Shown: one piece after another, positions 35,052-63,997 of the stretch | How positions within the stretch are numbered: the first letter of the stretch is position 1 | Layout of the letters: each line of letters opens with the position of its first letter | Virus record (IMG/VR): IMGVR_UViG_3300031963_000105 | Length of the DNA: 64,000 bases | Strand: one strand, 5' to 3' | Source: a virus | Notes under the pieces: model-generated | Told to the model about the DNA's origin: nothing | What the model saw: only the letters and a program-made list of their open reading frames with translations | Database searches by the model: none | Made by a program: the position numbers and the translations under genes

Positions 35052-35336
35052 ATGAACACTAATAAATTTGATCTACTCGTTTCCTCGCTACTGGAAGAAG
35101 CTAAATGCACAGGACCAACCAAAAAAGCTACATCAACAGCAAAAGGTAAAAAATGGATGAAATGCGTTAAAAACCCAAGTGGTGGAGGATACAAGAGAGT
35201 TCATTGGGGTCAAAAGGGAGTTAGAGTGACTGGAAAATCCGGTAATACTAAAAGAAAAAAATCATTTAGAGCTAGACATAAATGTTCATCGGCAAAACCC
35301 GGAACCGCAAAATATCAAGCTTGCAAAGATTGGTAA
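35052..35336 (+). CDS. Small basic Cys-containing virion-type protein (DUF6321/DUF5754-like)
   Basis: KRVHWGQKG...RKKSFRARHKC...YQACKDW motif after the propeptide-like SSLLEE. Confidence 0.7.
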   Translation: MNTNKFDLLVSSLLEEAKCTGPTKKATSTAKGKKWMKCVKNPSGGGYKRVHWGQKGVRVTGKSGNTKRKKSFRARHKCSSAKPGTAKYQACKDW

Positions 35337-35358
35337 TTTCTGGTAAGTTATTTTTACA

Positions 35359-35796
35359 ATGAAAAAATTCGATACTGTAATAGAAAACTACATTTCAGAA
35401 CAAATTGGATCATCTACATCTTCTGCTGTAAATATAAACCCAAATGTTTTTAAAACATTAAATGTAGCGCCAAACGCAGATCTTAAAAAGGTCGCAGACG
35501 TTTTGACAAAACTATTACCACAATTCAATAAAGATGTAAATCCTGTGGATTTAAAATCTCCAGATAGTTTCGATAATTTTATTTTAAATCTTAAAAAGAG
35601 TCCTACAAATTTAGAAATATTTAAACAGGAACTAAATAAAAATGGAATGGATCTAAAAGATTTAGAATTACAAAACACCCAAAATAATCAAGAACCAGAA
35701 GCTGAAAAAAATATAGCACAACAACAACAAGCATCTCCTAAACCTAATACTCCAACATCCCCAACATCATATACTTCACAGGGACCAAAGGCTTAA
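35359..35796 (+). CDS. Hypothetical protein with CTS-like N-terminus
   Basis: MKKFDTVIENYISE; Q/P/S-rich tail; GTAAGT box upstream. Confidence 0.7.
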   Translation: MKKFDTVIENYISEQIGSSTSSAVNINPNVFKTLNVAPNADLKKVADVLTKLLPQFNKDVNPVDLKSPDSFDNFILNLKKSPTNLEIFKQELNKNGMDLKDLELQNTQNNQEPEAEKNIAQQQQASPKPNTPTSPTSYTSQGPKA

Positions 35797-35820
35797 TATT
35801 TTTTACATTTAAAAAATTTA

Positions 35821-36645
35821 ATGAAAAACAAAAAAAATCGTAGGAAAGATAGTTCGCAAGAGCTATCGATTAACTCAAACGAAATTGAAAAAGATAATTC
35901 ACCATATGTCTTTCAAAGTGAAAAAATAAATTTCGAGTTATCTATTAAAGAATTACCTTGGACAGAAAAACAAAAAGAGATAATTTCAAATTTTTTAGAT
36001 AAAAAAACAAAAGTTTTATTATTAAAGGGACCAGCTGGTACGTCAAAAACTATTTTATCGATGTATTGTGGTTTAACTCTTTTAAACAAGAGAAGAGTTT
36101 CAGATTTAGTCTTGGTAAGATCTGCTGTAGAATCATCCGATTCAAAATTAGGATTTTTGCCGGGCGATATCATGGAGAAGTTTAATGTGTATTTGACACC
36201 ATTTCATGATAAATTTTCTGAGCTTTTAAGTAAACCCAATATAGATAGATTACAAAAAGATAATAGACTTACAATTTGTCCGATAAATTTTGCAAGAGGA
36301 TTACATTTTTCTGCAAAGTTTGTTTGTGCGGATGAAGTTCAAAATTTTTCTACCAAAGAATTACAAACAATTATGAGTAGAATTGGTGAATTTTCAAAAG
36401 TATTTTTATGTGGTGATCCAGAACAAAGCGATTTACCACAAGGAAAATCAGGATTCAGTAAAGTGTATGACTTATTTAATAATGAAGAATCTAGAGAAAA
36501 CGGAATCATTTGTATGGAATTAACAGAAGCTGATATCGTAAGATCAGAACTTTGTAGGTTTATAACACATAAATTCAAAGAATTAAATGTTCCAAAAATA
36601 GAAGAATTTAAAAAAGATTCTTGGAAACCGGGGGATCACAAATAA
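35821..36645 (+). CDS. phoH: PhoH-family ATPase
   Basis: GPAGTSKT, RSAVES, LGFLPGD, ARGLHF, DEVQN, SRIGEFSK, GDPEQSDL, DIVRS. Confidence 0.95.
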   Translation: MKNKKNRRKDSSQELSINSNEIEKDNSPYVFQSEKINFELSIKELPWTEKQKEIISNFLDKKTKVLLLKGPAGTSKTILSMYCGLTLLNKRRVSDLVLVRSAVESSDSKLGFLPGDIMEKFNVYLTPFHDKFSELLSKPNIDRLQKDNRLTICPINFARGLHFSAKFVCADEVQNFSTKELQTIMSRIGEFSKVFLCGDPEQSDLPQGKSGFSKVYDLFNNEESRENGIICMELTEADIVRSELCRFITHKFKELNVPKIEEFKKDSWKPGDHK

Positions 36646-36656
36646 GTAATTATATT

Positions 36657-36839
36657 ATGAACAACACACCACAATATCAAACCGTGGAAAATAAACCGAT
36701 TGGTTGTACTTTTTGCGGTGCTTTCATTCAAGGTAAAGTGACACCAAGAACGAATCCGCAAACAAAACAAGTAGTAAATGAATGCAGATGGGTTTGCTCT
36801 AGATGTGGAAACCTCACAAAAGTAGGCGTAGTAAAATGA
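36657..36839 (+). CDS. Small zinc-ribbon protein
   Basis: CTFC...CSRC; start at 36657 after an AATAAGTA box. Confidence 0.65.
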   Translation: MNNTPQYQTVENKPIGCTFCGAFIQGKVTPRTNPQTKQVVNECRWVCSRCGNLTKVGVVK

Positions 36840-37330
36840 ACTTTAATAAGTTAGTAAACGAAATATACGATACTAACGTTAATAAATCATATCCAGCTTC
36901 TAGTTCTGCACCTAGAAAAGATTTTGCTCCTGTATCATCAAGAGACGGATACCACTATCCATATCAAAATCAAGGCGCTCAAAACATAGAACAAGAACAT
37001 CCTAATAATCCAATATCATATCCATATCCATTACAAACGGTAAGTGATGACTTATCTCAAAGTTTTGTTTTTTTGCTTAATGGAACTACAAAAATAGTAG
37101 AAGCACAAAAAAATAAATCTTTAGACGTAAACCAAAAAAACGATTTAAATAAGTTAAAAAAATATTGTTTAAAACTTCTAGAAGGTATTAAAAAAGTTGC
37201 ATTTAAAGTAGATGAAATTTCCGACTTAGGAGTAGAAAAAACTCCAGAAATAAAGATTAATGCATCACAAAGCAATAATCCTAATAGCTTAAAACAGCAA
37301 GAAGTTTCAATTAAATTACCAACTAAATAA
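36836..37330 (+). CDS. Hypothetical protein with CTS-like N-terminus
   Basis: Start MNFNKLVNEIY, with ATGA-type coupling to the upstream stop. Confidence 0.7.
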   Translation: MNFNKLVNEIYDTNVNKSYPASSSAPRKDFAPVSSRDGYHYPYQNQGAQNIEQEHPNNPISYPYPLQTVSDDLSQSFVFLLNGTTKIVEAQKNKSLDVNQKNDLNKLKKYCLKLLEGIKKVAFKVDEISDLGVEKTPEIKINASQSNNPNSLKQQEVSIKLPTK

Positions 37331-37332
37331 TA

Positions 37333-37361
37333 TTGACAATATAATATTTGTATAATATTAT
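37333..37361 (+). promoter_or_regulatory. sigma70-like promoter
   Basis: TTGACA-17 nt-TATTAT. Confidence 0.5.
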
Positions 37362-37368
37362 TTTTGTA

Positions 37369-37821
37369 ATGAAAGAAAAATTTAAGAAAATATTCAAATC
37401 TACGCTAGTCGTAATAGTTATATCAACAGTTATAGGATTAGCTATAAAAAATATAGGTGGGGATTTTACAACAACATTTTTATTGGCTTTTTCTTGTCAA
37501 TATATACTATTTTCATTTGTTGGTAATGTATTAAACTCATATTTAATACAACAAAGCATTCAAAAACAGTTAGATAATCTAGAACCACTATCTACAATTT
37601 TACAATGCTCTTATTGCAACCAACAGAACGTAATGACTTTTGTTCCAGATGAATCTGAAACTTTTCAATTTACGTGTTTAAAATGTGATAAAAGAAATTC
37701 TGTTAAAATACAATTCGTTGTCGCTAGACAAACTGAAATATTAAATTTACCGGTTACATCAACCGGAGTATCAATAAGAGATAAAGAATTATTAGATAAG
37801 GAATTATTAAATGAACAATAA
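37369..37821 (+). CDS. Membrane protein (2 TM) with zinc ribbon
   Basis: Two hydrophobic helices then CSYC...CLKC; 15-bp duplication (DKELL x2) at 37780-37809. Confidence 0.7.
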   Translation: MKEKFKKIFKSTLVVIVISTVIGLAIKNIGGDFTTTFLLAFSCQYILFSFVGNVLNSYLIQQSIQKQLDNLEPLSTILQCSYCNQQNVMTFVPDESETFQFTCLKCDKRNSVKIQFVVARQTEILNLPVTSTGVSIRDKELLDKELLNEQ

Positions 37822-38077
37822 AAATAAAAAGAGTAAATGGTCGGCTATACATGAAGAATCAATCGTGTGGGCTAGATGGATAGCATTATACGAAGCGGTA
37901 AATATGATAGCGGAAACCGCAGAAAAAAAGAAAGTATCTTTTAAATCTAAACTTAAACCAATAGCTATAAACAAATATATAGAATCAACTCAGGATATAT
38001 ATCTAAGAAAAATATTAGAACAAGAGTATAATATTAATTTCTATTTTGACGATCAAGTAGAAAAAATATCTATTTAA
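37811..38077 (+). CDS. Hypothetical protein
   Basis: 88-aa ORF overlapping the upstream gene. Confidence 0.65.
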   Translation: MNNKNKKSKWSAIHEESIVWARWIALYEAVNMIAETAEKKKVSFKSKLKPIAINKYIESTQDIYLRKILEQEYNINFYFDDQVEKISI

Positions 38078-38706
38078 TAGTCACCATATACTGAAGTATC
38101 TGAACATAAACTATCACCATCTTCATAGTTGAAGTTTTGTTTAGATACTTCTTCTATTATATCATTATCATTATTAGGATTATTTCCTTGACCAGCACCC
38201 GGAGATCCAGATTCGTGCGAGAAGTCGTAACGTTTAGCTTTAAAAAACCAAACATAATGTCCTGCTATAGCATTAAGCTGAAACTCATCTATAACTTCTG
38301 TTAATTCGTAAACAGTAGCGCCTCGTTTTGGAAAATGTATCCTATCCAACCCAAACTCAGATAGCTCCATTAAATCTCCCATTTTAGGCTCTGCTCCATC
38401 CCCAAATACATCTTCAAACATTATAGGATGTATAACTCCAGTCATATCACTATCTGCTAATACACCAAACTTAGATAATAAATATGCATCATTATTTAAG
38501 TTTAATTGAACTATAAGTTTTTTACCTTCTCCATAACCAGCAGCTGGGTCTTCTCCGTAAAGAGGATTCATAGAGTTTAAATTTGATAAGTTGGAGAAGA
38601 AATTAACTTCTTGTCCATACATGCTTATCTGTTCTTTCCACCAATTTGAAAAGTTTAATCTCTCTTGAAAGTTTCTACTTTTATCTAAAAACCTTACCTT
38701 TTCCAT
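38074..38706 (-). CDS. 14: Neck/head-completion protein (gp14-like)
   Basis: EQISMYGQEV, LYGEDP, SKFG, GDLM, VYELTEV, FQL...YVW..KAKRYDFSHE. Confidence 0.8.
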   Translation of the reverse strand: MEKVRFLDKSRNFQERLNFSNWWKEQISMYGQEVNFFSNLSNLNSMNPLYGEDPAAGYGEGKKLIVQLNLNNDAYLLSKFGVLADSDMTGVIHPIMFEDVFGDGAEPKMGDLMELSEFGLDRIHFPKRGATVYELTEVIDEFQLNAIAGHYVWFFKAKRYDFSHESGSPGAGQGNNPNNDNDIIEEVSKQNFNYEDGDSLCSDTSVYGDY

Positions 38707-39070
38707 ATACGTCTCCTTTAAATGTTAGCTTATATGACCCATTTGGATTCATAGATAAATAAACTTTAGTTTGTTTTATCGCTTTTTCTGGTTCTTCTGC
38801 GGTAGGAATCAATCCATATTGTTTCTTTAATTGTTCTGCTTTAGCTAAACTTAATGGAACATCTTTACCGGTTCTTATGCATTGATTTATTTCATCATTC
38901 TTAGTTGTTAAATATCTAGCTACACCATTTACATTTTTAGTTTTACCTGTTGCTTGATTAACAGCATACATACCTTTTTCATGTCTATGAGTTCTTTTGT
39001 CTGGAGATAAAGAACCAGTATCTATAGAATTTATTTTTTTATCTATATTAAAAAATTCAAGAAAAGTCAT
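38681..39070 (-). CDS. Hypothetical protein with CTS-like N-terminus
   Basis: MTFLEFF; GTAAATA box at 39077-39083. Confidence 0.7.
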   Translation of the reverse strand: MTFLEFFNIDKKINSIDTGSLSPDKRTHRHEKGMYAVNQATGKTKNVNGVARYLTTKNDEINQCIRTGKDVPLSLAKAEQLKKQYGLIPTAEEPEKAIKQTKVYLSMNPNGSYKLTFKGDVYGKGKVFR

Positions 39071-39085
39071 TTTATATATTTACAT

Positions 39086-39115
39086 AAAAAAACCCCGTAT
39101 GATACGGGGTTTTTT
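39086..39115. terminator. Bidirectional intrinsic terminator
   Basis: AAAAAAACCCCGTA-TGA-TACGGGGTTTTTT perfect hairpin flanked by A- and T-tracts. Confidence 0.88.
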
Positions 39116-39135
39116 ATTTTGATTGTTTTTATATA

Positions 39136-40017
39136 TTATTTGTTATCAAATAACATTTTTCCTTTATTGACTGCACCTGAAACTTCTTGTTTCTTTTTTG
39201 TTAAAACGGAAACTCCCTTTTTAACATTATGGGATTTTAATTTTCCGTCTGCGCCTTTTCCAACTTGTGGAGTTTCAGCATGTTTCTTTCCAACTTTTAT
39301 ATTTCCAGAAACAACATTATTTTTAGGGTTGTTCATTCCAGCACTAAGCTTTTCAATGTCAACTAATGGTTCTCCTAATTCTTCGGCGTCGTCTAATGCG
39401 AAAGATTCTGGATAGGTTTCTTCTTCGTCTGAAGAAGATTCTTCACCTTCAGTTTCTTCCATTCCTTCTTCGCCTTCTTCGCCTTCTTCGCTTTCTTCAC
39501 CTTCTTCTTCTTCAGTTTCACCACCAATAGCAGCTTGAAGAATTTCAATAAGTTTTTCGGCCATTTCTTTATCGAGAGTTAAAGTAACGTCTTCTCCTTC
39601 TGAATCTGAATCCATGAATTCATCAACATCAGAATCTTCTTCTGAAGAGTCATCAAGACCTAAAGAAGAATCATCAAAAGCATTGTCAGACTCTAATTCA
39701 TTATTTGGTTGGGTGGAGAAGTTAAATGTTTCTTCTGAAACAATTTTATTAAACAAAGCATCAAAAGGATTTGTAGCTTCTTTAACACCAGCTAATTTCT
39801 TTAATGAAGAATCTGGTGTGTTTAATTCGCCTGATGCTTCATCTGGTTTTTCAACACCTTCAACTTCTTCTGGTCCTGTTCCTTTTTGGAACTCGGTTAC
39901 TTTTTTTTCGTTTTGTTTATCACCGAATGGCGCGCCAACCTTTAATTCTGTTTTTACTTCAGAGCTTGGTACGCTTTCGTTTAATACTTCGAGGTATGCT
40001 TTTGTTATTGGGTCCAT
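39136..40017 (-). CDS. Highly acidic protein, putative prohead core/internal protein
   Basis: E/D-rich centre, several xxE sites (VLNES, IVSEE), late box GTAAATA upstream, own terminator. Confidence 0.6.
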   Translation of the reverse strand: MDPITKAYLEVLNESVPSSEVKTELKVGAPFGDKQNEKKVTEFQKGTGPEEVEGVEKPDEASGELNTPDSSLKKLAGVKEATNPFDALFNKIVSEETFNFSTQPNNELESDNAFDDSSLGLDDSSEEDSDVDEFMDSDSEGEDVTLTLDKEMAEKLIEILQAAIGGETEEEEGEESEEGEEGEEGMEETEGEESSSDEEETYPESFALDDAEELGEPLVDIEKLSAGMNNPKNNVVSGNIKVGKKHAETPQVGKGADGKLKSHNVKKGVSVLTKKKQEVSGAVNKGKMLFDNK

Positions 40018-40066
40018 ATGTTGTATAATTATTTACTCTTTGTTTATTACAAAATCTATATTTTTT

Positions 40067-40876
40067 TTAATATTTACAATTGTCTAATATCATTTTAGAT
40101 TCTTTTTTTAAATCTAAACACTTGATTAATTCATAATCTTTCTCGCCATTAACCCATATTATATATGAACTGGGTACACTAAAATTAGTTATTTTTTCCA
40201 TGATAGTAGAATATAATGAAAGCTGTAAGCTATATTTAGTAAATTCACATTGATCTAAATGTGATAAGCAATCTATCATTTTATCACCTTTAAATCCTTT
40301 TCTTTTGATTTCTTTGTTTGTTTTATAATCAAAGATAACGAACTCATTCTTAACGAAATTATAAGAAAGATTATCAATAGTTCCACAAACACCAGTTTCA
40401 GAATCACCTATTACAAATTCGGACTTAATTATTATATGTTCTTTTTTCCACCAGTCGTAAAAGTTTTTAAAATTTTTAATTAATAGTGCTACGTCTTGAT
40501 AATATTCTTTTATTGAATTTTTAGTCTTAAATGTTTTCTTATCTTCAAAAAAGAAATTTATAGCCGTTTTATCTAAAGAAATTTGCTTTCTATTAAAAAA
40601 GTTTTCAACGTATTTATGAAATTCAGATCCTTTATGACAAGAATAATCTCTTTTAAAGTCCCATTGCTCTAGAATTTCTTCAACTGAAAATCCATCTCTT
40701 TTGGCTACCACTTCTGCTATAGCTTTAGAATTAAAAGGTTTTTCGAATTTTTTTATCAACTGAGAAACTGACATTCTAGCTGGTATTCCATCTATAGTAT
40801 ATTTATGATCCTTTTCATAAAACAATATATTAGAAAACGCATTCTCTAATTTTATTAGAGTTTCAAAATTTATCAT
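40067..40876 (-). CDS. PD-(D/E)xK exonuclease (Cas4/PDDEXK_1-like)
   Basis: SVSQLI, GSEFHKYVE, SEFVI...GTIDNL, IFDYKTNK, YSLQLSLY. Confidence 0.85.
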   Translation of the reverse strand: MINFETLIKLENAFSNILFYEKDHKYTIDGIPARMSVSQLIKKFEKPFNSKAIAEVVAKRDGFSVEEILEQWDFKRDYSCHKGSEFHKYVENFFNRKQISLDKTAINFFFEDKKTFKTKNSIKEYYQDVALLIKNFKNFYDWWKKEHIIIKSEFVIGDSETGVCGTIDNLSYNFVKNEFVIFDYKTNKEIKRKGFKGDKMIDCLSHLDQCEFTKYSLQLSLYSTIMEKITNFSVPSSYIIWVNGEKDYELIKCLDLKKESKMILDNCKY

Positions 40877-42075: not shown

Positions 42076-42274
42076 ATCACCATACTACACGGGAAAAAAA
42101 TATTTTCAATAAAATTTTTTATTTTCAATCTATTGACTGAAAGATAAACAATTTATAACAAAAAAACAAATAAAAATATTTTTATAATTTTTTACGCATA
42201 TATTTATAAACAAAGGTAATACAATTTATTTTTTGATTATTTTTTTAAAAATACTTTATAAAATAAGTATTAAC

Positions 42275-43765: not shown

Positions 43766-43793
43766 TTGCTATTCAGCTTCAATTTGCTAAGAT
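43766..43793 (+). promoter_or_regulatory. sigma70-like promoter for nrdA
   Basis: TTGCTA-16 nt-TAAGAT. Confidence 0.4.
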
Positions 43794-43809: not shown

Positions 43810-45465
43810 ATGGAAAAATATATATATTGGCTTAACAAAGATTCGCGTAAATTTTTAGAACGAGGATATTTGTTAGAGGGAGAAACACCAGAACAACGAA
43901 TCCGAGATATAGCAGAAGCCGCAGGAAAATACTTAAACAGTACAGACTTTGCTGACAAGTTTGAGGATTACATGCATCGTGGGTTTTACTCTTTGAGTTC
44001 TCCCATTTGGGCTAATTTTGGCCGTAAAAGAGGATTGCCTATATCTTGCTTTGGGTCTTATGTTGGTGATACAATGGAAAACATAATGGAAAAAGTTTCT
44101 GAGGTAGCATTGATGACAAAACATGGTGGAGGAACATCAGCTTACTTTGGAGCATTAAGAGGAAGAGGAACACCAATCTCTTCCGGTGGAGAATCGACAG
44201 GTTCGGTTCACTTCATGGAGCTTTATGACAAGCTCATGGAAGTCGTTTCTCAAGGTAGTGTTCGCAGGGGATCCTTTGCGGCATATCTTCCAATCGACCA
44301 TCCAGACATTGAAGAATTTTTAAAGATTCGCGGGGAGGGACATCCAATTCAAAATCTTTCTATTGGTGTTTGTGTGTCTGATGAATGGATGAAGAAAATG
44401 GTTGATGGGGACAAAGAAGCTCGTAGAATTTGGGGTCTTGTTATCAAGAAACGTTTTGAATCGGGGTACCCTTACATCTTCTTTAGTGATAATGCTAACA
44501 ATCAAGCACCTCAAATCTATAAAGACAAGGGGTTAAAAATTAACAACTCTAATCTATGTTCTGAAATTATGCTTTCTAATTCGGAAGATGAATCTTTTGT
44601 ATGTGATCTTTCATCTTTAAATTTGGAAACTTGGGAAGAATGGAAAGCCACCGATGCAACAGAAGTTTTGGTATATTTTCTAGATGCTGTAATGTCAGAA
44701 TTTATTGAAAAAACCAAAGGGATTAAATTCATGGAAGCCGCTAGAAATTTTGCTATTAATCAAAGAGCATTAGGAATTGGGGTTCTTGGGTGGCATTCTT
44801 TATTACAATCCAAGATGATTGGGTTTGAATCGATGGAGGCTAAAATGTTAAACAATGCAGTATGGAAAGGAATCAGAGAACGCGCTAATTATGCATCTAG
44901 ATTTTTAGCTAAAAATTATGGGAATGCTCCAATTTACGAAGGAACAGAATACACAAGAAGAAATACAACAACTCTTGCTGTTGCACCTACAACATCATCG
45001 AGTTTTATTCTCGGTCAAGTATCTCCAAGTATAGAACCTCTTAATTCAAACTACTTTGTAAAAGATTTAGCAAAAGGTAAATTTACATATAAGAATCCAT
45101 ATCTTAAAAAACTTCTAAAGGAAAAGGGTAAAGATGACGATGATACTTGGAAGTCTATCCTTATTAAAGGTGGAAGTGTTCAGCATTTAGATTTTCTTTC
45201 CCAAGAAGAAAAGGACGTATTTAAAACATTTGGTGAAATTTCTCAAAAAGAAATTATTATTCAAGCAGCACAACGTCAAAAATATATTGATCAGGGTCAA
45301 TCATTGAATATTATGATTCCTCCAAATACCAAACCAAAAGAAGTTAATGAGCTTATGATATTTGCTTGGGAACAAGGAATTAAATCTTTGTATTATCAAA
45401 GAAGTGCAAATCCCGCACAGGAATTGGCGCGTTCAATTTTAACATGCAAATCTTGTGAGTCTTAA
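43810..45465 (+). CDS. nrdA: Ribonucleotide reductase class I large subunit (no ATP cone)
   Basis: PISCF, GGGTS, VSQGSVRRG, SNLCSEI, RALGIG, APTTSSS, QGQSLN, KSLYY, C-terminal CKSC. Confidence 0.96.
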   Translation: MEKYIYWLNKDSRKFLERGYLLEGETPEQRIRDIAEAAGKYLNSTDFADKFEDYMHRGFYSLSSPIWANFGRKRGLPISCFGSYVGDTMENIMEKVSEVALMTKHGGGTSAYFGALRGRGTPISSGGESTGSVHFMELYDKLMEVVSQGSVRRGSFAAYLPIDHPDIEEFLKIRGEGHPIQNLSIGVCVSDEWMKKMVDGDKEARRIWGLVIKKRFESGYPYIFFSDNANNQAPQIYKDKGLKINNSNLCSEIMLSNSEDESFVCDLSSLNLETWEEWKATDATEVLVYFLDAVMSEFIEKTKGIKFMEAARNFAINQRALGIGVLGWHSLLQSKMIGFESMEAKMLNNAVWKGIRERANYASRFLAKNYGNAPIYEGTEYTRRNTTTLAVAPTTSSSFILGQVSPSIEPLNSNYFVKDLAKGKFTYKNPYLKKLLKEKGKDDDDTWKSILIKGGSVQHLDFLSQEEKDVFKTFGEISQKEIIIQAAQRQKYIDQGQSLNIMIPPNTKPKEVNELMIFAWEQGIKSLYYQRSANPAQELARSILTCKSCES

Positions 45466-45916: not shown

Positions 45917-46468
45917 ATGTATTCCAACCAAAAAGATCAAATTAATTTAGAAGAAGTTTATAAAAATATTCATTCTGAAATAAACGAAGCTCAAGTACCA
46001 GATGCTTCATTTGGAAACGCAGTTGCTTTTTTGGGGATGATAGCTTTACCAGTAGCTATGGAATTTGTAATGAATAGATACAAAGGTTTTATTAGAAATA
46101 AAAACATCAAAGGTCTAACAGATACAATAGTTTCAACTATCAAAAATGATTCCGAACTTCAAAACAAAATTGAAAGTTTAAAAAAGGAAGCTGACGCTTC
46201 AAAAAGTGAAGAATATACAACAGCAATTAAACAATTATTATCAAAATCTATAAAATATAATGAAACCTTCAGTAACGAAGTTCAAAATGTATATGAAGAT
46301 AAAATTATTAAAGAAATATTAAATTTACTTCCAAATAACTTTAGTGGAAAAACAAACGATCAAATAACTAAAGAAGTTCAAAGAAACATAAATGTTTCAA
46401 ACGCAGAACAACAAAACCAACAGAGAAAAAGAATGGGTCTTCCATCTGTTAGACCAATGAGACTTTAA
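45917..46468 (+). CDS. Hypothetical protein with CTS-like N-terminus and one hydrophobic helix
   Basis: MYSNQKDQINLEEVYKNIHSEINEA; GTAAGTA box upstream. Confidence 0.7.
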   Translation: MYSNQKDQINLEEVYKNIHSEINEAQVPDASFGNAVAFLGMIALPVAMEFVMNRYKGFIRNKNIKGLTDTIVSTIKNDSELQNKIESLKKEADASKSEEYTTAIKQLLSKSIKYNETFSNEVQNVYEDKIIKEILNLLPNNFSGKTNDQITKEVQRNINVSNAEQQNQQRKRMGLPSVRPMRL

Positions 46469-51860: not shown

Positions 51861-52289
51861 ATGAAAATGAATTTTTACGTTTTGGTTGAAAAAATAATGT
51901 CTTCTTTATTAGAAGAATCTTTTGATATATTTTTTGTCAAAACTATAAATTCAGAAATAGATGTTATTAAAGGAATAAAAGACTTTAAACTCAAGAAAAA
52001 TGCTCTTAAAGAAAAATATAAATCCTTAACATATCATCTTTTAAATTCAAACTACGAAAACGTTTTAAAAAATAACTTTCCAGATTTAAGACCTAAATCA
52101 ACTGACGCGGAGTTTGAAAAATATTTTCACGAATATCTAGTAAATAATCCTCCAGCTGGTAATAGTTTCAAAAAATTTATATCCGACATAGATAATATAA
52201 TATTAAAACTCGGCAATAGAAATAACCAACAGCTTGGTAATTTATTACTTCTCAGAAGTGAATATTTAATACAATACGGAGATTTTTAA
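51861..52289 (+). CDS. Hypothetical protein with CTS-like N-terminus
   Basis: MKMNFYVLVEKIMSSLLEES; AATAAATA box upstream. Confidence 0.7.
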   Translation: MKMNFYVLVEKIMSSLLEESFDIFFVKTINSEIDVIKGIKDFKLKKNALKEKYKSLTYHLLNSNYENVLKNNFPDLRPKSTDAEFEKYFHEYLVNNPPAGNSFKKFISDIDNIILKLGNRNNQQLGNLLLLRSEYLIQYGDF

Positions 52290-52649: not shown

Positions 52650-52994
52650 ATGAATAGAAAAGACTTTAAAACATTATCGGAATCTTACGAAAAAATTTTT
52701 GAAAACACATTAACATCAATGATTGATGATGATCAAGCTTTAGCAAGTTCCGAAGTTCCAATGCCTTCTCCAGAAGTCTCTACACTAGCTATTACTAACT
52801 CTCCAGCTACAACCGAAGTAGATGAAGCAAAACAAATGGTTATTGCTAACTTAAAAACTTTAATCGGTCATGCTGAAAAAGCCTTGAACATCCTTCAGGG
52901 TGGTAAAGAATTGGAAGCTTGGATGAATGATAAAATTAGCGTAGCATCTAATGATGTGGTTCAAGTCGCTAATGCTTTAGAGTTTGGAGACTAA
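52650..52994 (+). CDS. Hypothetical protein with CTS-like N-terminus
   Basis: MNRKDFKTLSESYEKIFEN; C-terminal LEAWMNDKISVA helix; GATAAATA box upstream. Confidence 0.7.
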   Translation: MNRKDFKTLSESYEKIFENTLTSMIDDDQALASSEVPMPSPEVSTLAITNSPATTEVDEAKQMVIANLKTLIGHAEKALNILQGGKELEAWMNDKISVASNDVVQVANALEFGD

Positions 52995-54701: not shown

Positions 54702-55148
54702 ATGACGACCTTTAAAAATTTTACACAAAAAAGACCTATAGTATTAATCATAAATAATACAAAAAGTGGTTATTCAGAAAAACTTAAGTATTTTTTTAAA
54801 GGTAAATCAAACATTAAAATATTTGATGATAATTTTAATATGGAAAAAATATTAAAATTAAACCCGAGATTAGTTCTAGATATAAATGAAAGTAATAAAA
54901 CGAGAGGTATTTATATAAACTGTTCAAACTCTATAATAGAAAAAATCAAATACATAATTTCTAATAATATAGAAATTCCATTTATAGGAAAACATCAAGT
55001 AAATAAAAATAAAAAATTAGAACTTCAATTATTTAAAACTGGAACTCCTTACTGCTATATAGAGTTTCCAACGTCCGGGTTTGAATATAAAACTTTACTT
55101 AAAAATACATTGATTATTTTAAACCGTATAGTAAACTATTTTAAATAA
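54702..55148 (+). CDS. Hypothetical protein (MTTFKNF CTS-like start)
   Basis: GTAAATA box at 54687-54693; alpha/beta pattern without clear catalytic motifs. Confidence 0.6.
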   Translation: MTTFKNFTQKRPIVLIINNTKSGYSEKLKYFFKGKSNIKIFDDNFNMEKILKLNPRLVLDINESNKTRGIYINCSNSIIEKIKYIISNNIEIPFIGKHQVNKNKKLELQLFKTGTPYCYIEFPTSGFEYKTLLKNTLIILNRIVNYFK

Positions 55149-57041: not shown

Positions 57042-57067
57042 ATATATATATATACTTATATATATAT
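57040..57067. repeat. (AT)n dinucleotide runs flanking a late promoter
   Basis: (AT)7A at 57040-57054, then CTT, then (AT)5 at 57058-57067. Confidence 0.85.
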
Positions 57068-57172
57068 TTTCAAAAATTTTAGTAAATTATTGTTAATAAA
57101 TATATTTATCATTATTCAATAAAATTTTCATACGTATGTATTTAATGAGTTTATTTAAAATTTTTTTAATCA

Positions 57173-58606: not shown

Positions 58607-59220
58607 TATTCAGAATAATTTATTATCGCAGGAATTTCTTCAATATTCAATAAAAAACAACAAATATATCTAAGAACACCATTAGTTAATATTAAAGCGC
58701 CTTTATCATTTAGAACGGTAAATATATTATCTTCTTTTAATTCAAATCCTTTTGATTTTAAAGAGTATGATAATGTTATAATTTTATTTATGAAATAATT
58801 ATAAAAACTTTTATATGAAGTATTTAATAAAAATCTTACAGCTCGCTCTGGGTTTTTTGTTTTGTCTTTAAGCTTACCGCTAAAAAATTCTATTAAAAGT
58901 TTTTCCACTTCGGTTTTAAATATAGGATTATCTGGTGTTATATTTTTATCTTTTAATTTTCTTGCTATCTTATATAAGAAATGTTTTTTAATAGAAAATA
59001 TATAATTCTTATCTTGTATTTCAGAAGTTTCTATTTGATTTGAATTTATACTGTTATCTGTAGAGTATGGAATATTGTCTAATACTAAAAAATAATTTTC
59101 ATTTTTTTTATATAACCCATCTTGTATATTTTGCGTTGAAAAAAATAAAGGTAAAGTTTCTTCGTATGAAGTTGATACGAAAAATCTTATATTTTTAATT
59201 TTTATAATATCAGATTCCAT
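58606..59220 (-). CDS. Hypothetical late protein
   Basis: 204-aa ORF with TATAAATA at 59227-59234; TAATG coupling to the carbamoyltransferase. Confidence 0.7.
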   Translation of the reverse strand: MESDIIKIKNIRFFVSTSYEETLPLFFSTQNIQDGLYKKNENYFLVLDNIPYSTDNSINSNQIETSEIQDKNYIFSIKKHFLYKIARKLKDKNITPDNPIFKTEVEKLLIEFFSGKLKDKTKNPERAVRFLLNTSYKSFYNYFINKIITLSYSLKSKGFELKEDNIFTVLNDKGALILTNGVLRYICCFLLNIEEIPAIINYSE

Positions 59221-59235
59221 TAATAATATTTATAA

Positions 59236-59712
59236 TTACTTTACTCTTATTACTTCTGTTTTTGGACCATCGAGATCTAACTGAGTTCCCTTTTTAACAT
59301 ATTCTATAGCATACGGCGCTGGCATATTCTTTTTAACATACGCTAAAATAATATCATTTATTTTTAAATAAGATTCTTTTGTCCAATGTGATATATATGT
59401 AGAATCGATATTATCTTGCTTTGGTAGAATAACTCCAGAATATGTAAAGTCTATTATTTTTGGAGTACCTAAAACTACAATATCAGAATTATTTTCTAAA
59501 GGATATACCACACTATAATTTTTATCTATAATTCCTCTACTTTTAAGTTCTTTAAAAAGAAAAGAATGAGACTCTCTGGATGAATTATACGGAGCTAAAA
59601 AAGTTCCTTCCGAGTCCCCTAAAAAGTATATAAAATTATAATCTCTCCTATCATAAACGCCAGCGATATATTCTGGAGATTCTAATAGAAAATATTCTTT
59701 AAACGAAATCAT
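59236..59712 (-). CDS. Hypothetical protein with T4-like CTS
   Basis: MISFKEYFLLES. Confidence 0.7.
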   Translation of the reverse strand: MISFKEYFLLESPEYIAGVYDRRDYNFIYFLGDSEGTFLAPYNSSRESHSFLFKELKSRGIIDKNYSVVYPLENNSDIVVLGTPKIIDFTYSGVILPKQDNIDSTYISHWTKESYLKINDIILAYVKKNMPAPYAIEYVKKGTQLDLDGPKTEVIRVK

Positions 59713-60986
59713 TTTTCAATAAAAAACTGTTTGAATGATACTATCTTACTTTCTTGTTTAACTTCTTGTTCAGGTTTAACTTCTGGAGAAGCTGGTTTAT
59801 AGTTTGGATTAAAAACATCTGGTTTAACCTTTTTAAGATCATCAACTATAATTTCAAAACCACCATCTGGTTCCAATAATTTACCATCTGGTTTTTGAAA
59901 ATCTAAATACTCTTTTAATTTATCTCTATCATTAAAAAGATCTTCCAAGCTGGATACTCCGAAATACTCCATACAATCTTTTTTAAATTCTGGAGATCCA
60001 ATATATTTTGGATTTTTTTGTTTCTTATTCCACATTACAGAACGTCTAATAGCTCTTGCTCTACTACCTCTACCTCTCATAACCCCTTTGGCGTTTAACC
60101 CGACGATTAAACCAATTGGATTTCCATTTTCATCAAACTCCTTTTCGTTATCATCCAAGAATCTCAAATCGCTGGCATCACCGTTCAATACTTTGAATCC
60201 TAAATAATGACTAGGTAATACATTATTTTTTTGATAGAAAACATACGCTACGTTTCCACCATTTTTAAGAATATCCAAAGATGCTTTGTCGTTTTGTTCA
60301 CTACGACTAAATGTTTGGTGAATCAATTTACTTTGAGAATACTTTTTATAGCGGGGAACTATTTTTGTATAGTCGTAAAACGTAACACCTTTTCCTGCTT
60401 GCTCTTTAACAAAATCTTCCATCTTTTCTCCGAAGTCATAATCAGAAGTTCCATTCATTCTAATAGCAAGTTTTAATTTAAACTCATCTGCAAAATGTTT
60501 AAGTAAAACAATATCCGATTTTAATTTTGTAAAAAACAATTCAGGAGATAAATGTAACTCCTGTGCTTTTCTAATTCTGGATCTTAACTTACCTTTTAAT
60601 ACCGCCGGATTACCAGCGGTGTTTAAACAACCAATACGGCAACAACCAGAAGAACCAACGCAAACATCAACCCCTCCTTCTTCTGAAGGTGCTATATAAA
60701 GAATACCAGTAATATATTGATCTCCACTTCTTTTATCATGTAAAGATTTTAAGGTCTTTGCATCCGCTAAAACTGATAATAAATTAAGTCTTGGTAATTT
60801 TCTTTTAAGTTCTTGTTCAAACTTTATTTCCTCATCACTTAATTGTAACTTTGCCTCGGTCAATACTTCTTCTTGACATAGTTCACATGAAACACTTTCG
60901 TTTAAAAAATCTTCATACTTTAAAACATTGAATGTGTTTTTGTTATTTCTGTTTGTTACGTTTTCTACTAAAAGTTCTAAATCCAT
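59709..60986 (-). CDS. GP88-like (Cys-cluster, radical-SAM-like fold suspected) protein
   Basis: ILYIAP...CVGSSGCCRIGCLNTAG, IRMNGTSD, FYDYTK, TFSRSE, NVAYVF, GDASDLRFLD, VGLNAKG. Confidence 0.65.
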   Translation of the reverse strand: MDLELLVENVTNRNNKNTFNVLKYEDFLNESVSCELCQEEVLTEAKLQLSDEEIKFEQELKRKLPRLNLLSVLADAKTLKSLHDKRSGDQYITGILYIAPSEEGGVDVCVGSSGCCRIGCLNTAGNPAVLKGKLRSRIRKAQELHLSPELFFTKLKSDIVLLKHFADEFKLKLAIRMNGTSDYDFGEKMEDFVKEQAGKGVTFYDYTKIVPRYKKYSQSKLIHQTFSRSEQNDKASLDILKNGGNVAYVFYQKNNVLPSHYLGFKVLNGDASDLRFLDDNEKEFDENGNPIGLIVGLNAKGVMRGRGSRARAIRRSVMWNKKQKNPKYIGSPEFKKDCMEYFGVSSLEDLFNDRDKLKEYLDFQKPDGKLLEPDGGFEIIVDDLKKVKPDVFNPNYKPASPEVKPEQEVKQESKIVSFKQFFIEK

Positions 60987-61001
60987 AATTTTAATAAATA
61001 T

Positions 61002-61460
61002 TTACAATATACTTAGTATATTCAAATTGTAAACTGCAAATGCATCATTAGATCTATCGTATATTGCATCGATTCCGAATGAGTTCATAATACTTGGCAA
61101 CTCATCGAATCCCATCCAACTACTAAGTTCCCGTCCTTTATATTTTAAATTTTGATAATAATCCCAATCATCGGTTTTCCTTAAATCCAATATTTTATTA
61201 ATCGGATTCATTTTAAATTCTAAAACTGTTCCTCCTTCGTCGTCCCCAGAAAAATCCGCATAATTACTTTTTGCTAATTGTTCATCTGTAGTAACATAAA
61301 AAGCTTGTCCGAAATATCCCTTATGACATTTACTTAAATTCAACCCATTTTCTTTTATATCTTTCGCAGATGATAAATCGGTTCCATGATACACGGTAAG
61401 AGGATATTGAAAATTTTCTATTTCAGTTTGCTCTTTAAAAAAATATTCTTTGAAAGTCAT
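61002..61460 (-). CDS. ADP-ribosyltransferase-fold protein (H-Y-x / PARP-like) with T4-like CTS
   Basis: MTFKEYFFKE; VYHGT, GYFGQAFYVT, GTVLEF, AFAVYN; TATAAATA at 61466-61473. Confidence 0.7.
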   Translation of the reverse strand: MTFKEYFFKEQTEIENFQYPLTVYHGTDLSSAKDIKENGLNLSKCHKGYFGQAFYVTTDEQLAKSNYADFSGDDEGGTVLEFKMNPINKILDLRKTDDWDYYQNLKYKGRELSSWMGFDELPSIMNSFGIDAIYDRSNDAFAVYNLNILSIL

Positions 61461-61474
61461 TTCAATATTTATAC

Positions 61475-61503
61475 TTGACTAAAATAAAAAAATCAAATAC
61501 TAT
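61475..61503 (+). promoter_or_regulatory. sigma70-like promoter, back-to-back with a late promoter
   Basis: TTGACT-17 nt-TACTAT; the late box TATAAATA on the - strand ends 1 nt away. Confidence 0.6.
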
Positions 61504-61509
61504 TTTCTC

Positions 61510-61983
61510 ATGAATATATTTGTACTTGATAAAAATCCCATTCAAGCCGCTCGTCAACATAATGATAAGCATTGCATTAAGATGATTCTGGAGCATACTC
61601 AAATGCTTTCCACCGCCATCCGTGTTCATTCCAATGACACCGTTGATGGTGTATATAAACTAGCACACCTTAATCACCCATGCTCTAAATGGGTGCGCGC
61701 AGCGCGAAAAAATTTTATTTGGCTTTGTGAAATGACCGAAGAACTATTTCAAGAATATACTCGCCGCTATGGTAAGCAACATAAGTCCTATCCCATCTTC
61801 CAGTTGTGCAGGGATCACGCCAACATTGTTCCAGACGGAGACATGACCCCATTTGCTCAAGCTATGCCAGATGAATATAAAAATTCCGATCCGGTTACTG
61901 CATACCGAACATATTACCTCAAGGATAAAAAAGAATTTTCTACATGGAAACTAGGTAACGTTCCGGATTGGTGGATTGTATAA
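61510..61983 (+). CDS. Pyrimidine dimer DNA glycosylase (DenV/endonuclease V-like)
   Basis: MNIFVLD...DKHCIKMILE..QMLSTA, HLNHPCSKWVR, EYTRRYGKQH, AYRTYY. Confidence 0.8.
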   Translation: MNIFVLDKNPIQAARQHNDKHCIKMILEHTQMLSTAIRVHSNDTVDGVYKLAHLNHPCSKWVRAARKNFIWLCEMTEELFQEYTRRYGKQHKSYPIFQLCRDHANIVPDGDMTPFAQAMPDEYKNSDPVTAYRTYYLKDKKEFSTWKLGNVPDWWIV

Positions 61984-62453
61984 TGAAAGAAATAGAAATT
62001 AAAAAAGAATGGATTGAAGAAGCAGAACAAAAATCCAAAGAGATGGGACAACTAAGAAACTCCATAACAAAAGGAGAAGGTAATGTCGTTGGGTTTCTAG
62101 GTGAAATAGTAGCGGCGAATTATATTAAAGCCAAAATAGAAAACACTCATGATTATGATATTGTTAAGAATGATGTTAAAATAGATGTTAAAACAAAAAA
62201 GTGTTCTTCTAAACCAAAAGACTTTTATGAATGTTCTATAAGTGGATACAATACAAAACAAAATTGCGATGTCTATTTGTTTGTAAGAATACTAAATGAT
62301 AATTCTAAGGCATGGTTATGCGGAATGATACCAAAAACAAAGTTCTTTAAGAATGCAAAGTTTTATCCAAAGGGATTTATAGATACTTCAAATAATATGA
62401 AGTTCCATTGTGATACCTATAATATGATGATTAAAGATTTAGTACAGTTTTAA
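61983..62453 (+). CDS. PD-(D/E)xK restriction-endonuclease-like protein
   Basis: GFLGEIVA...YDIV...KIDVKTK; start at 61983 (TAATG overlap). Confidence 0.6.
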   Translation: MKEIEIKKEWIEEAEQKSKEMGQLRNSITKGEGNVVGFLGEIVAANYIKAKIENTHDYDIVKNDVKIDVKTKKCSSKPKDFYECSISGYNTKQNCDVYLFVRILNDNSKAWLCGMIPKTKFFKNAKFYPKGFIDTSNNMKFHCDTYNMMIKDLVQF

Positions 62454-62860
62454 CGCGCGCCTTCTGGACCTAAACGGTTTCCGAATTCACCCATCATACT
62501 TGATAACTTTTCTTTACCCGCTTTGGCTTCCGGTGATGCATTTTTATCCCATGTATCACTCATGTTTTGAAGACGTTCAGCAGTATTTTCTCCGCGTGTT
62601 AAATCTTTAACAACCCAATTAACCCAAGCACTTACATCGCTAGATCCAATATCTTCAAGAGATTCTCCTTCCGCAACATGACTAGCTACCTGATTAACAG
62701 CATCAAGAACTTTTTCTATACCATAATCTCTTAATAAATCGACATGGTTACTAGCTATTCTGCGACTTATTGCGCGATGAACAGAATCATAAACATTTCC
62801 TTCTTTTAAGATTTGATTAGAATATAAATTTTCTAATAGTATTTGGTCTTTGCTTCTCAT
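62450..62860 (-). CDS. Hypothetical protein with CTS-like N-terminus
   Basis: MRSKDQILLENLYSNQILKEG; TATAAGTA at 62870-62877. Confidence 0.7.
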   Translation of the reverse strand: MRSKDQILLENLYSNQILKEGNVYDSVHRAISRRIASNHVDLLRDYGIEKVLDAVNQVASHVAEGESLEDIGSSDVSAWVNWVVKDLTRGENTAERLQNMSDTWDKNASPEAKAGKEKLSSMMGEFGNRLGPEGAR

Positions 62861-62877
62861 ATGTTTATATACTTATA

Positions 62878-63132
62878 TTAGAGTTGATCGAAATCAGTAT
62901 CGGGATGATAAATGTCATCATCATAGCAATAATAAAAATGTTTATTATTCTTTGAATCCCAAACATAAAGATACCACTTACCATTCTTTTTAAAAGGAAT
63001 TTCTTTTCCTCCAGAACCAATTTTAATCGGAAACTCAAAACCTTTATCCCAATCCGCAGGAGGAACATTTCTTTCCTCGTTTAAAATTTTACTATATAAA
63101 CCCTCTAGAACTATTTGGTCTTTGTTTTTCAT
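62878..63132 (-). CDS. Hypothetical aromatic-rich protein with CTS-like N-terminus
   Basis: Start revised to MKNKDQIVLEGLYSKILNEE after a GTAAATA box. Confidence 0.7.
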   Translation of the reverse strand: MKNKDQIVLEGLYSKILNEERNVPPADWDKGFEFPIKIGSGGKEIPFKKNGKWYLYVWDSKNNKHFYYCYDDDIYHPDTDFDQL

Positions 63133-63142
63133 TATATTATAT

Positions 63143-63406
63143 TTACTTGGTTTTATCTCCCCTTTTCCAAGATATTCTTTTTGATCCCTTTTTGTGTCTT
63201 TTTCTCGTATTACACATAGACTTTGTTGGTCGGCAAGCAGGGTATCCTTTTCTTTTTTCACCCTTTTGTCTACCACATGGTTTTCCTGTTTTACAATCTA
63301 TCCATCCTTTACCTTTGTTTCTTTTAAACCATCCATGAAGACCTTGCTTCTTTTCCAAGTCAAAACCTTCTTCCAATACGGATTCTATAAGATTTACCAA
63401 GTTCAT
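63143..63406 (-). CDS. Small basic Cys-rich protein (DUF5872-associated type)
   Basis: MNLVNLIESVLEEG...GLHGWF...WIDCKTGKPCGR...YPACRP; start revised to 63406. Confidence 0.7.
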   Translation of the reverse strand: MNLVNLIESVLEEGFDLEKKQGLHGWFKRNKGKGWIDCKTGKPCGRQKGEKRKGYPACRPTKSMCNTRKRHKKGSKRISWKRGDKTK

Positions 63407-63570
63407 TTCTTTTTCTTTTTCCAAATCTTTCCTTGACGGCATTTTACAACCGCACCACTTTTATATGCAGATGTCTTTTTACCATATACCGAATCGGCTC
63501 TTTTAAGACATCTGTCTCTCTTTACCTTGGCTTCTGATAAAACTTTTTCTATTAACACAGTTAAATTCAT
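63403..63570 (-). CDS. 55-aa basic protein (DUF5872-like; not in the ORF track)
   Basis: MNLTVLIEKVLSEAKVKRDRCLKRADSVYGKKTSAYKSGAVVKCRQGKIWKKKKK; AATAAATA box upstream; ATGA overlap with the next gene. Confidence 0.7.
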   Translation of the reverse strand: MNLTVLIEKVLSEAKVKRDRCLKRADSVYGKKTSAYKSGAVVKCRQGKIWKKKKK

Positions 63571-63589
63571 ATATTATATTTATTAAAAA

Positions 63590-63997
63590 CTATTCTATTT
63601 TTCTATAAACAAAATTTCCCCTATCGGTTATTAACTTAGGTTCGTTTAATGCTATAACATCAAATAACGGATATCCATATTTGATTCCTCCTTTTGGAAT
63701 ATCAAACTTACTATCTTTTTGTACTAGATGTTTATTATAATCTTTTCTAAATTCTTCTTCGGTTTTATATATTACTGGATCTCCTATAGTAGCATAACCA
63801 ACAAGATATGCCTTTCCCTTTCCGGTTCTTATAATACCAACCTTTTTTCCTATAAATGATTTTAAAGAATTTCTATTTCTTGTCTCTATTGTTTTCTCTC
63901 CGCGTAAAATTTGACCGGTAAAATCTTGTATCTTATCATTAATGTTTATACCTATAGAAACATCATTTGATTCTAAAAAATATTCTTTAAATGTCAT
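63590..63997 (-). CDS. ASCH/PUA-domain protein with T4-like CTS
   Basis: MTFKEYFLES; FTGQILRGEKTIETR, GKKVGI, YGYPL...V. Confidence 0.8.
   Translation of the reverse strand: MTFKEYFLESNDVSIGININDKIQDFTGQILRGEKTIETRNRNSLKSFIGKKVGIIRTGKGKAYLVGYATIGDPVIYKTEEEFRKDYNKHLVQKDSKFDIPKGGIKYGYPLFDVIALNEPKLITDRGNFVYRKIE

Follow-up and report, generated by a model that had tools for sequence, protein, structure and literature searches.

The 64,000-nt stretch of viral DNA of IMG/VR virus record IMGVR_UViG_3300031963_000105 (the whole of which is called the window here) encodes, between positions 35,052 and 63,997, a series of late proteins whose first residues resemble one another although the rest of their sequences do not. 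The original prediction for this DNA held that about 17 unrelated late genes share propeptides like the capsid-targeting sequence (CTS) of phage T4, in three classes. Two questions follow: is there such a tagging system, and are its tags directed to the capsid? By sequence comparison, the leaders are modular and interchangeable, strictly N-terminal as leaders, and terminated at a Glu junction; the proposal of a modular tag with more than one grammar, ending in hydrophobic-x-Glu and carried by unrelated late proteins, came through every sequence-level test that was run. The leaders occur in genomes that have T4-type head genes. We consider it probable that they are T4-type capsid-targeting propeptides with several grammars, which would serve both loading and processing.

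The analysis set comprised the window, a 210.6-kb relative that is 99% complete (G001) and shares 51 syntenic proteins with the window at a median identity of 46%, and 24 related loci (given L numbers below); together they hold 736 distinct open reading frames (ORFs). Profiles of three leader families were scored against 5,290 decoys, which were 26-residue segments starting at internal Met residues and shuffled N-termini. Leader B has the consensus MKNKDQILLENLYSKILLEE, and 87 of the 736 ORFs scored above every decoy (top decoy, 12.8 bits), an outcome that bears out the predicted class in a profile comparison with control sequences; its variants include KDQILLENLY and KD(D/H/S)xxLxEAY. Leader A has the 10-residue consensus MKSFKKYFLE/A (a slash marks the Glu junction throughout); a simple pattern for it gave 24 N-terminal matches, compared with 1.8 expected from its internal density, and the only decoys with high scores on its profile were true internal copies of the leader. 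Leader C is rarer and has two forms, C1 (M..KFDxLVxxLLxE) and C2 (MNLxxLIExVLxE); the C1 motif was found 12 times at N-termini and never internally (333,210 residues). The leaders span 9–11 (A), 19–24 (B) and 13–16 (C) residues. Pairs of non-homologous ORFs with a high-scoring match in their first 18 residues made up 1.3% of all pairs, against about 0.05% expected from shuffled or internal segments. An independent control set of 975 head-module ORFs, taken from around the capsid gene of 80 other contigs, contained no match to B, one to A and five to C, all five being members of one small gene family adjoining gp23. None of the replication, tail or baseplate genes of the window or G001 bears a leader.

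The leader-B profile (first 30 residues of 41 proteins) was also compared with 1.84 billion cluster representatives and found 204 matches at E <= 0.001. Among the best 150 of these, the motif begins at Met1 in 138, and a Met stands three residues ahead of the Lys in 142; the 138 matches of at least 60 residues among the same best 150 form 97 body clusters. A literature search for the leader B sequence found no paper. As a census tool, the exact pattern MTFKEYF was rejected: its 19 matches in IMG/VR were mostly unrelated, representing a 228-aa protein family or positions inside long ORFs.

The modularity of the leaders is most evident from what lies behind them. The 119 tagged genes of the analysis set have bodies that form 53 clusters, 7 of which contain more than one leader class. 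Two or three classes were seen on the ADP-ribosyltransferase, 135-aa, MAYPVSF, ACWKNYKQ and KRDRCLK families. Thus, the ADP-ribosyltransferase body follows MTFKEYFFKE in the window and MRNKDQILLENLYDSISNDK in six relatives, and the ortholog of the 135-aa protein of 63590–63997 (L040:1967-2389) has the body SNDVSIG... unchanged but behind leader B, as MKNKDQIILENLYESI/SNDVSIG. MKSFKQYIKE/MAYPVSF has the counterpart MKNKDQILLENLYTE/MAYPVSF (leader end NLYTE), and the 30-residue basic peptide ACWKNYKQ occurs both as MKTFKQYFLE/ACWKNYKQ and as MNIKSIIENVLTE/ACWKNYKQ (leader end NVLTE). The KRDRCLK body has leader C2 in the window (63403–63570), leader A in G001, and B plus A in L031. Wherever the sequences let a swap junction be placed, it lies directly behind a Glu. 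In a database set of 91 ADP-ribosyltransferase homologs, about 46 have a leader of the B type, about 33 one of the A type, and one a hybrid; the most distant homologs (44–52% identity) have no leader and begin directly with the catalytic domain. The claim that the downstream bodies are unrelated held as well: in an all-versus-all BLASTP comparison of 80 window proteins, the listed genes matched only in their first 12–23 residues.

Leader A also appears inside fusion proteins. Leader-B proteins of 329–774 aa contain an internal leader A ahead of a C-terminal domain that in other places is encoded by a tagged gene of its own: ...MKMNFEQYILE/KYKRMSAG precedes a DUF5661 domain, ...PTFKNYFELVE/KKVKRDRCLK precedes the KRDRCLK peptide (as in the fusion L032:8947-9936), and ...ITFKKYFTE/SKKSKSKKRKK precedes a basic tail. 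Tandem leaders (B then A, or B then B) were observed in L038:13131-13400, L037:2221-2490, L031:1862-2089 and protein P0233; in some such proteins the first leader has decayed, e.g. MKNKDQISTKN-ISFKDFFLE/K. Internal and tandem copies are sensible as cut sites, not as translation-start elements.

This last point bears on the notion that the conserved 5′ ends are nucleotide elements (joints at which cassettes recombine and are shuffled, or enhancers of translation initiation in a genome devoid of Shine-Dalgarno sequences) and that the peptide is a by-product. Such a notion could draw on the A-rich starts found 8–14 nt after the late box with no Shine-Dalgarno sequence, on the hybrid leaders, which show recombination inside leaders, and on the codons CTG and GAG, which are over-used at positions 9–10 of leader B relative to the genome; this over-use hints at shared descent and suggests that the copies were spread by recombination. 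In 54 strict copies of leader B, however, D5, L8, L9, E10 and L12 show no or almost no variation as residues, although each is specified by 2–6 synonymous codons. Because the amino acids are fixed while the codons vary, the leaders are, on this codon evidence, under selection at the protein level. Moreover, the same bodies are preceded by three leaders unrelated in nucleotide sequence, leader A is found deep within ORFs, and other late genes with the same promoters have no leaders. We therefore regard a purely nucleotide-level explanation as very improbable.

All 17 N-termini listed in the original prediction are present at their starts and on their strands. The genes, with the outcome of the profile comparison, are these:

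63590–63997, minus strand: 135-aa gene with leader A, MTFKEYFLE/S; 18.8 bits on the class A profile; supported. The body is ASCH-like as a lead only, from an Atlas search.

61002–61460, minus strand: 152-aa gene with leader A, MTFKEYFFKE/Q, and a PARP-like ADP-ribosyltransferase fold (from the model); exact TATAAATA box upstream; supported.

59236–59712, minus strand: 158-aa gene with leader A, MISFKEYFLLE/S; 22.6 bits; supported. The leader is kept in the orthologs of L020, L021 and L039, and the start overlaps the end of gene 59709–60986.

62450–62860, minus strand: 136-aa gene with leader B, MRSKDQILLENLYSNQILKE/G; 44.1 bits versus 12.8 for the top decoy; late-box-like TAAGTATA upstream; supported.

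62878–63132, minus strand: 84-aa gene with leader B, MKNKDQIVLEGLYSKILNE/E; 44.4 bits; L020 ortholog 92% identical; supported.

45917–46468, plus strand: 183-aa gene with a divergent leader B, MYSNQKDQINLEEVYKNIHSEINE/A; 26.5 bits on the iterated leader-B profile; supported. The G001 ortholog has MNDFEQKKLAEVYQKVY, at 12.4 bits.

35052–35336, plus strand: 94-aa gene with leader C1, MNTNKFDLLVSSLLEE/A; very basic, Cys-containing body with a mature isoelectric point (pI) of 10.7; supported. The body is 86% identical to that of G001:180451-180735, though the leaders differ, and has a weak DUF5754 match.

35359–35796, plus strand: 145-aa gene with leader C1, MKKFDTVIENYISE/Q; fits the C1 pattern; supported, though more weakly because no tag-swapped ortholog was found.

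63403–63570, minus strand: 55-aa gene with leader C2, MNLTVLIEKVLSE/A; 23.2 bits; body 40% Lys plus Arg; supported.

63143–63406, minus strand: 87-aa gene with leader C2, MNLVNLIESVLEE/G, and a basic body; 24.8 bits; supported. The start overlaps the upstream stop (ATGA); the N-termini of orthologs differ, yet all finish at E/GF.

51861–52289, plus strand: 142-aa gene, MKMNFYVLVEKIMSSLLEE/S; marginal class C, at 14.9 bits versus 11.5 for the top decoy; no homolog bearing another leader was seen.

59709–60986, minus strand: 425-aa GP88-family gene (Pfam GP88, E = 7.8e-24), MDLELLVE...; leader not established. The N-terminus is within the decoy range, and that of its L021 ortholog reaches 11.4 bits versus 11.5 for the top decoy.

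52650–52994, plus strand: 114-aa gene, MNRKDFKTLSESYEKIFE; 7.4 bits, inside the decoy range; leader B not supported.

38681–39070, minus strand: 129-aa gene, MTFLEFFNID; leader-A-like start with no Glu site, within the decoy range; not supported. It adjoins the neck-protein-like gene 38074–38706 and matched no Pfam or PHROG family.

54702–55148, plus strand: 148-aa gene, MTTFKNF; no profile score above the decoys, no Pfam or PHROG family; not supported.

36836–37330, plus strand: 164-aa gene, MNFNKLVNE; motif too short to be told from chance, leader not established; in the G001 ortholog the start reads MNLKDIIEE.

39136–40017, minus strand: 293-aa gene, MDPITKAYLEVLNE/S; below threshold on all three profiles; leader not established.

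Thus, 10–11 of the 17 leaders are supported, and 6–7 are indistinguishable from chance. The T4-like class (a) stood for the genes starting at 63997, 61460 and 59712 but not, on comparison of profile and decoys, for those at 39070 and 54702; class (b) stood at 62860, 63132 and 45917 but not at 52650; class (c) stood at 35052, 35359, 63570 and 63406, was marginal at 51861, and fell away at 36836, 60986 and 40017. Chance similarity among AT-rich N-termini is therefore true of part of the list, as the starts at 52650, 39070, 54702, 36836, 60986 and 40017 lie within the decoy range or are too short. For leaders A, B and C1 it is excluded by the counts given above (24 matches against 1.8 expected for A, 87 ORFs above all decoys for B, 12 N-terminal and no internal occurrences for C1), and as an account of the leaders at large it is scarcely credible. 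A minimal class of 8–9 residues (MNxxxLLxE), tried as a rescue for 36836 and 60986, was discarded: the motif carries too little information.

Pfam and PHROG scans of 27 window proteins gave, for the 17 listed genes, only GP88 and sub-threshold ADP-ribosyltransferase family matches; three neighbors scanned alongside them gave PhoH, weak neck-protein and weak nuclease matches. Just past the end of the window, L056:2162-2761 encodes a 199-aa protein with leader B behind a TATAAATA box; it overlaps the start of 63590–63997, so that six tagged genes stand in a row on one strand. The 293-aa product of 39136–40017 has an unusually conserved N-terminus: 11 of its first 14 residues (MDPxTxxYLEVLNE) are identical in G001:183894-184742, whereas overall identity is 42%. 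In the latter protein and in the one encoded after gp23, an internal (D/N)LYxKILQE is reminiscent of the second half of leader B.

What do the leaders precede? The original prediction named enzymes (an ADP-ribosyltransferase, an ASCH-like protein and a GP88-like protein) and basic DNA-binding proteins. The predicted structure of 61002–61460 has a mean predicted local distance difference test score (pLDDT) of 86.7, with the leader as a separate helix (residues 3–12, pLDDT about 63), and its Foldseek matches include PARP10, PARP15 and diphtheria-toxin-like chains (probability about 1.0, TM about 0.5), the best match being a chain of a cyanophage pre-ejectosome. His25, Tyr49 and Tyr55 are invariant, the third catalytic position has no invariant Glu, and Pfam matches fall below the cut-offs; a PARP-like ADP-ribosyltransferase fold is supported by the model. 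The GP88 gene is real, but its own leader was not established; GP88 paralogs in relatives do bear leader B (L026:795-1931, L027:8205-9404 and G001:7776-8912). The ASCH assignment stays a lead. Other identified bodies are DUF5661 and a 511-aa protein of the CCA-adding-enzyme type, in which leader B is followed by a PolyA_pol head and an HD domain (L028:5374-6909, minus strand); this protein may be a packaged tRNA-repair enzyme. Cargo lengths range from 40 to 774 aa. As for basic cargo, the mature pI exceeds 10.5 for the genes starting at 35052, 63570 and 63406, and several window cargos are indeed very basic; nonetheless, the pI of tagged proteins does not differ from that of untagged ones, and we have consequently dropped “basic DNA-binding cargo” as a general rule.

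The nature of this cargo raises another possibility: the leaders may be inhibitory or destabilizing propeptides (pro-enzyme locks or degrons) by which late proteins of possible toxicity are made inactive or short-lived in the cell that produces them, packaging playing no part. A protein with an ADP-ribosyltransferase fold could be toxic, and the model shows its leader as a helix apart from the body, of low confidence and connected through a linker. But a single peptide of 10–20 residues is unlikely to inhibit about 100 unrelated folds, some of them 30-residue basic peptides, and three different sequences swap on one body. Such a function would also be compatible with packaging and would need the same protease. 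We hold this explanation to be improbable.

The timing of expression was assessed from late-promoter motifs. In the related loci, TAAATA or TAAGTA lies at most 35 nt from the start of 41 of 76 tagged and 82 of 283 untagged genes (p = 7e-5), a motif that is loose and common in AT-rich DNA; in G001 the figures are 4 of 4 and 63 of 284 (p = 0.003). Other tagged genes are coupled to one that lies upstream and is itself tagged. The statement that most of the listed genes have late boxes is correct as far as it goes, since TAAATA or TAAGTA lies at most 35 nt upstream of 12 of the 17; however, 39% of the untagged window genes have one too, and the enrichment reaches significance in the larger set rather than in the window. 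At several late genes (35020–35051, 61461–61490, 63133–63160 and others), TA(T)AAATA or TAAGTA was seen only about 8–14 nt ahead of the ATG, with no Shine-Dalgarno sequence; a late box so near the ATG implies that late mRNA leaders are very short or absent.

We turn to the head genes and the putative cleavage site. G001 has, in a row, genes for gp4, a Peptidase_S77 protease, a 73-aa protein, a gp22-like scaffold and gp23. The protease matches PF03420 (Peptidase_S77) in Pfam with E = 3e-30 and the head maturation protease of PHROG at 6e-60; PHROG also identified the scaffold and the major head protein. Three further genomes (G006, G008 and G009; 203–212 kb, 99–100% complete, the latter two with terminal repeats) contain the head module together with 3–5 strict leader-B motifs, and the reversed leader-B pattern, as a control, gave 0 matches in them. 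The N-termini of 54 distinct gp23 proteins have in common ...LMENQERWC(L/I)xE, followed by a variable Gly/Ser-rich stretch. The invariant (L/I)-x-E is the predicted propeptide cut site of the lineage’s gp23, in a layout like that of T4 gp23, from which a 65-residue propeptide is removed after Glu; solved chains of the T4 protein have 521 residues (precursor) and 456 (mature).

A hydrophobic-x-Glu is present within the leader of 119/119 tagged proteins. Of 87 B leaders, 73 have this Glu at position 10 and 12 have it at 11, while 61 have a second site at 18–20; of 23 A leaders, 15 have the Glu at position 10. A strict Leu or Ile occupies P3 of the site in 97% of B, 100% of C and 52% of A leaders, P3 of the last often being Phe or Tyr. 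In T4, an Asp at position 10 prevents processing while targeting goes on. There, gp21 cleaves after L/I-x-E, the first 10 residues of IPIII are enough for targeting, and the CTS uses residues 4 and 7 for targeting and 8 and 10 for processing (PMC9026906).

Might the Glu junction instead be a helix end rather than a protease site, with the leaders serving as peptides that dock onto a different partner or assembly of the late phase (for example, a chaperone or a membrane-associated factory, or an oligomerization helix)? The leaders are predicted to be amphipathic helices (residues 3–12 in the ADP-ribosyltransferase model), the Asn-Leu-Tyr past the first Glu of leader B is invariant, and housekeeping-like enzymes are among the cargo; co-folding of G001 gp22 with residues 1–45 of a leader-B protein gave no answer, neither for nor against binding. 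Docking accords poorly with the leaderless state of all of the tail, baseplate and replication genes of the window and G001, and an internal leader A ahead of separate domains fits a cut site better. The junction behind the Glu agrees with the gp21 rule and with the gp23 site of the lineage, and leader A matches the start of T4 IPI. We deem docking elsewhere unlikely.

If the leaders are capsid-targeting propeptides, as we favor, the following sequence of events can be proposed. The tagged proteins would be made late, alongside the head proteins. The amphipathic N-terminal leader would dock the cargo to the scaffolding core (gp22 and small core proteins) as the major capsid protein closes round it. 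A gp21-type prohead protease would then cut after the Glu of hydrophobic-x-Glu (Glu10 in A and B, with the second site of B near 18–20) and also behind the internal leader A copies of fusion proteins. The freed cargo would remain in the head and enter the next host with the DNA. Core binding, gp21 cleavage, head retention and injection are what we infer by analogy with T4.

Several points weigh against this interpretation. The window itself has no head genes, and the link to gp21 is by way of syntenic relatives at the median protein identity of 46%. The likeness to the T4 CTS is a pattern and not a significant match: on the leader A profile, IPI scores 9.5 bits and IPII and IPIII 3–5 bits, while shuffled decoys reach about 8. 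In leader B, the Asn-Leu-Tyr behind the first Glu shows the same degree of conservation as the part ahead of that Glu, which is unexpected if a cut at Glu10 ends the functional tag. Some of the cargo is large or odd to inject (the 511-aa CCA-adding/HD enzyme, for instance), the cargo is not enriched in basic proteins, and about 40% of the untagged window genes also bear the loose late-box motif.

A bolder version of the capsid-targeting interpretation is that the leaders copy the N-termini of head-core proteins. The cargo, imitating the assembly helix of the scaffold, would polymerize along with the latter. Every gene that gained one of the three leaders would thereby join an injected arsenal of more than 100 families, readable from sequence, and internal leaders would make polyproteins that are cut in the head. 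In part of the lineage (G001 L048:8866-9753; L080, L085, L117 and L132), gp22 starts MNIKSILEKIDKNVLSEE/A or MNLKAILENLDKSVISE/A, close to the leader C MNIKSIIENVLTE/A, and the small core protein between gp21 and gp22 starts MNI(K/R)NLISKL. In a post hoc look, gp22 ranked second and gp21 third of 31 head-module families by leader C score. A leader-like N-terminus, MSLFKDFYTKVIQE/A or MNLFNEFYKNILTE/A, is also found on the head-module gene after gp23 (306–355 aa; L048:11607-12527, with homologs in L065, L068 and L073–L075), whose product matched no Pfam or PHROG family. In the reciprocal search with a gp22 N-terminus profile, the best real match was indeed a leader C gene, at 12.4 bits, but decoys scored up to 16.9. 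The likeness of the gp22 start to leader C thus does not beat decoys and is a lead only; we offer scaffold mimicry tentatively, as a doubtful possibility. If true, the arsenal would include tRNA-repair-type and ADP-ribosylating enzymes.

How do the leaders compare with known systems? Like the T4 CTS, they are short (10–20 residues), stand on unrelated late proteins, and end in hydrophobic-x-Glu followed by Ala or Ser. T4 IPII and IPIII start MKTYQEFIAE/A, and IPI starts MKTFKEF...ITE/A. Leader A likewise has 10 residues, of which 4 and 7 are aromatic and 10 is a Glu preceding Ala (copies include MKTFKQYFLE/A and MKTFKKFFTE/A), and the MKTFKEF start of IPI matches its first seven residues, a likeness rather than proof of homology. 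Among the cargo is an ADP-ribosyltransferase fold, as in Alt, the packaged ADP-ribosyltransferase of T4, and the cargo set, like the T4 internal proteins, is highly variable between relatives. In contrast to T4, three leader families are interchangeable on one body; leader B is new, about 20 residues long and two-part, scoring below 0 bits against the T4 CTS, and neither B nor C has a T4 counterpart. There are far more cargo families (about 100 body families in public data), leaders also lie inside fusion proteins, and most cargo is not basic.

The variable internal-protein loci of T-even phages are reported to encode diverse anti-restriction proteins with only the CTS in common, IPI* acting against GmrSD (PMC3012670). 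The runs of small, fast-changing late genes with only a leader in common resemble these loci and are consistent with an arms-race arsenal delivered with the DNA, although no cargo here is homologous to a T-even internal protein. In phiKZ, 201phi2-1 and SPN3US, gp21-like proteases cleave the propeptides of ejection and inner-body proteins behind a short motif whose last residue is Glu (PMC5694885, PMC9026906). These giant phages are similar in that a gp21 homolog processes numerous proteins of the head interior after x-x-Glu, diverged paralogs have conserved N-termini, and propeptides have redundant cut sites. Their propeptides differ in being mostly longer than 100 residues and in belonging to paralogous families; here, leaders of 9–24 residues precede unrelated bodies.

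The window has a G+C content of 29% and encodes T4-type replication genes, baseplate genes, a gp5-like protein, a tail tube and a 904-aa tail sheath that is at most about 40% identical to cyanophage sheaths. Among 50,697 phage records there was no near match to its DNA, no isolate of its lineage (by near and protein searches), and no match to the ADP-ribosyltransferase of 61002–61460. The runs in which identical or near-identical DNA was found come from 16 studies; most are labelled as freshwater, lake or river metagenomes, and “fungus” is, oddly, also among the labels. The lineage, an uncultured freshwater clade, branches deeply and has a capsid protein only about 34% identical to cyanophage gp23; IMG/VR contains 469 relatives of the capsid gene. 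With the GP88-like protein of the window as query, three IMG/VR loci were found at 68–77% identity. One locus, L020, has nine genes that begin M(R/K)(N/S)KDQ(I/L)LLE(N/S)(L/I)Y, with bodies of 84–658 aa behind, and the back-translated pattern KDQILLENLY led to 21 further stretches in 16 contigs, with at most 6 copies per stretch. One complete genome has 13 tagged genes, and as many as 12 lie in one 14-kb stretch. Two observations concern the relatives themselves. At G001:14600-32500 (L045:14600-20000 and L046:1-12500), an island of about 18 kb has 41–48% G+C, compared with 32% for the genome, and holds small ORFs that lack an AT-rich region upstream; either this DNA was acquired or the assembly is chimeric. 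The 930-aa L022:5717-8509 product is homologous to that of window gene 43810–45465 (551 aa), the match starting only at residue 631, which points to a large insertion, possibly an intein, or to an extra N-terminal region.

If the leaders work as they do in T4, sequence alone would be enough to list the proteins that an abundant, uncultured freshwater lineage brings into its host. These proteins (ADP-ribosyltransferase folds, GP88-like proteins, the CCA-adding/HD enzyme and tiny basic peptides) would be candidates for host takeover in the first minute and for counter-defense in phages that cannot be cultured, and one head would accept several leader grammars. Leader swaps and the double and internal leaders show a recombination route by which new cargo is recruited, and alternative capsid-loading tags could serve phage engineering.

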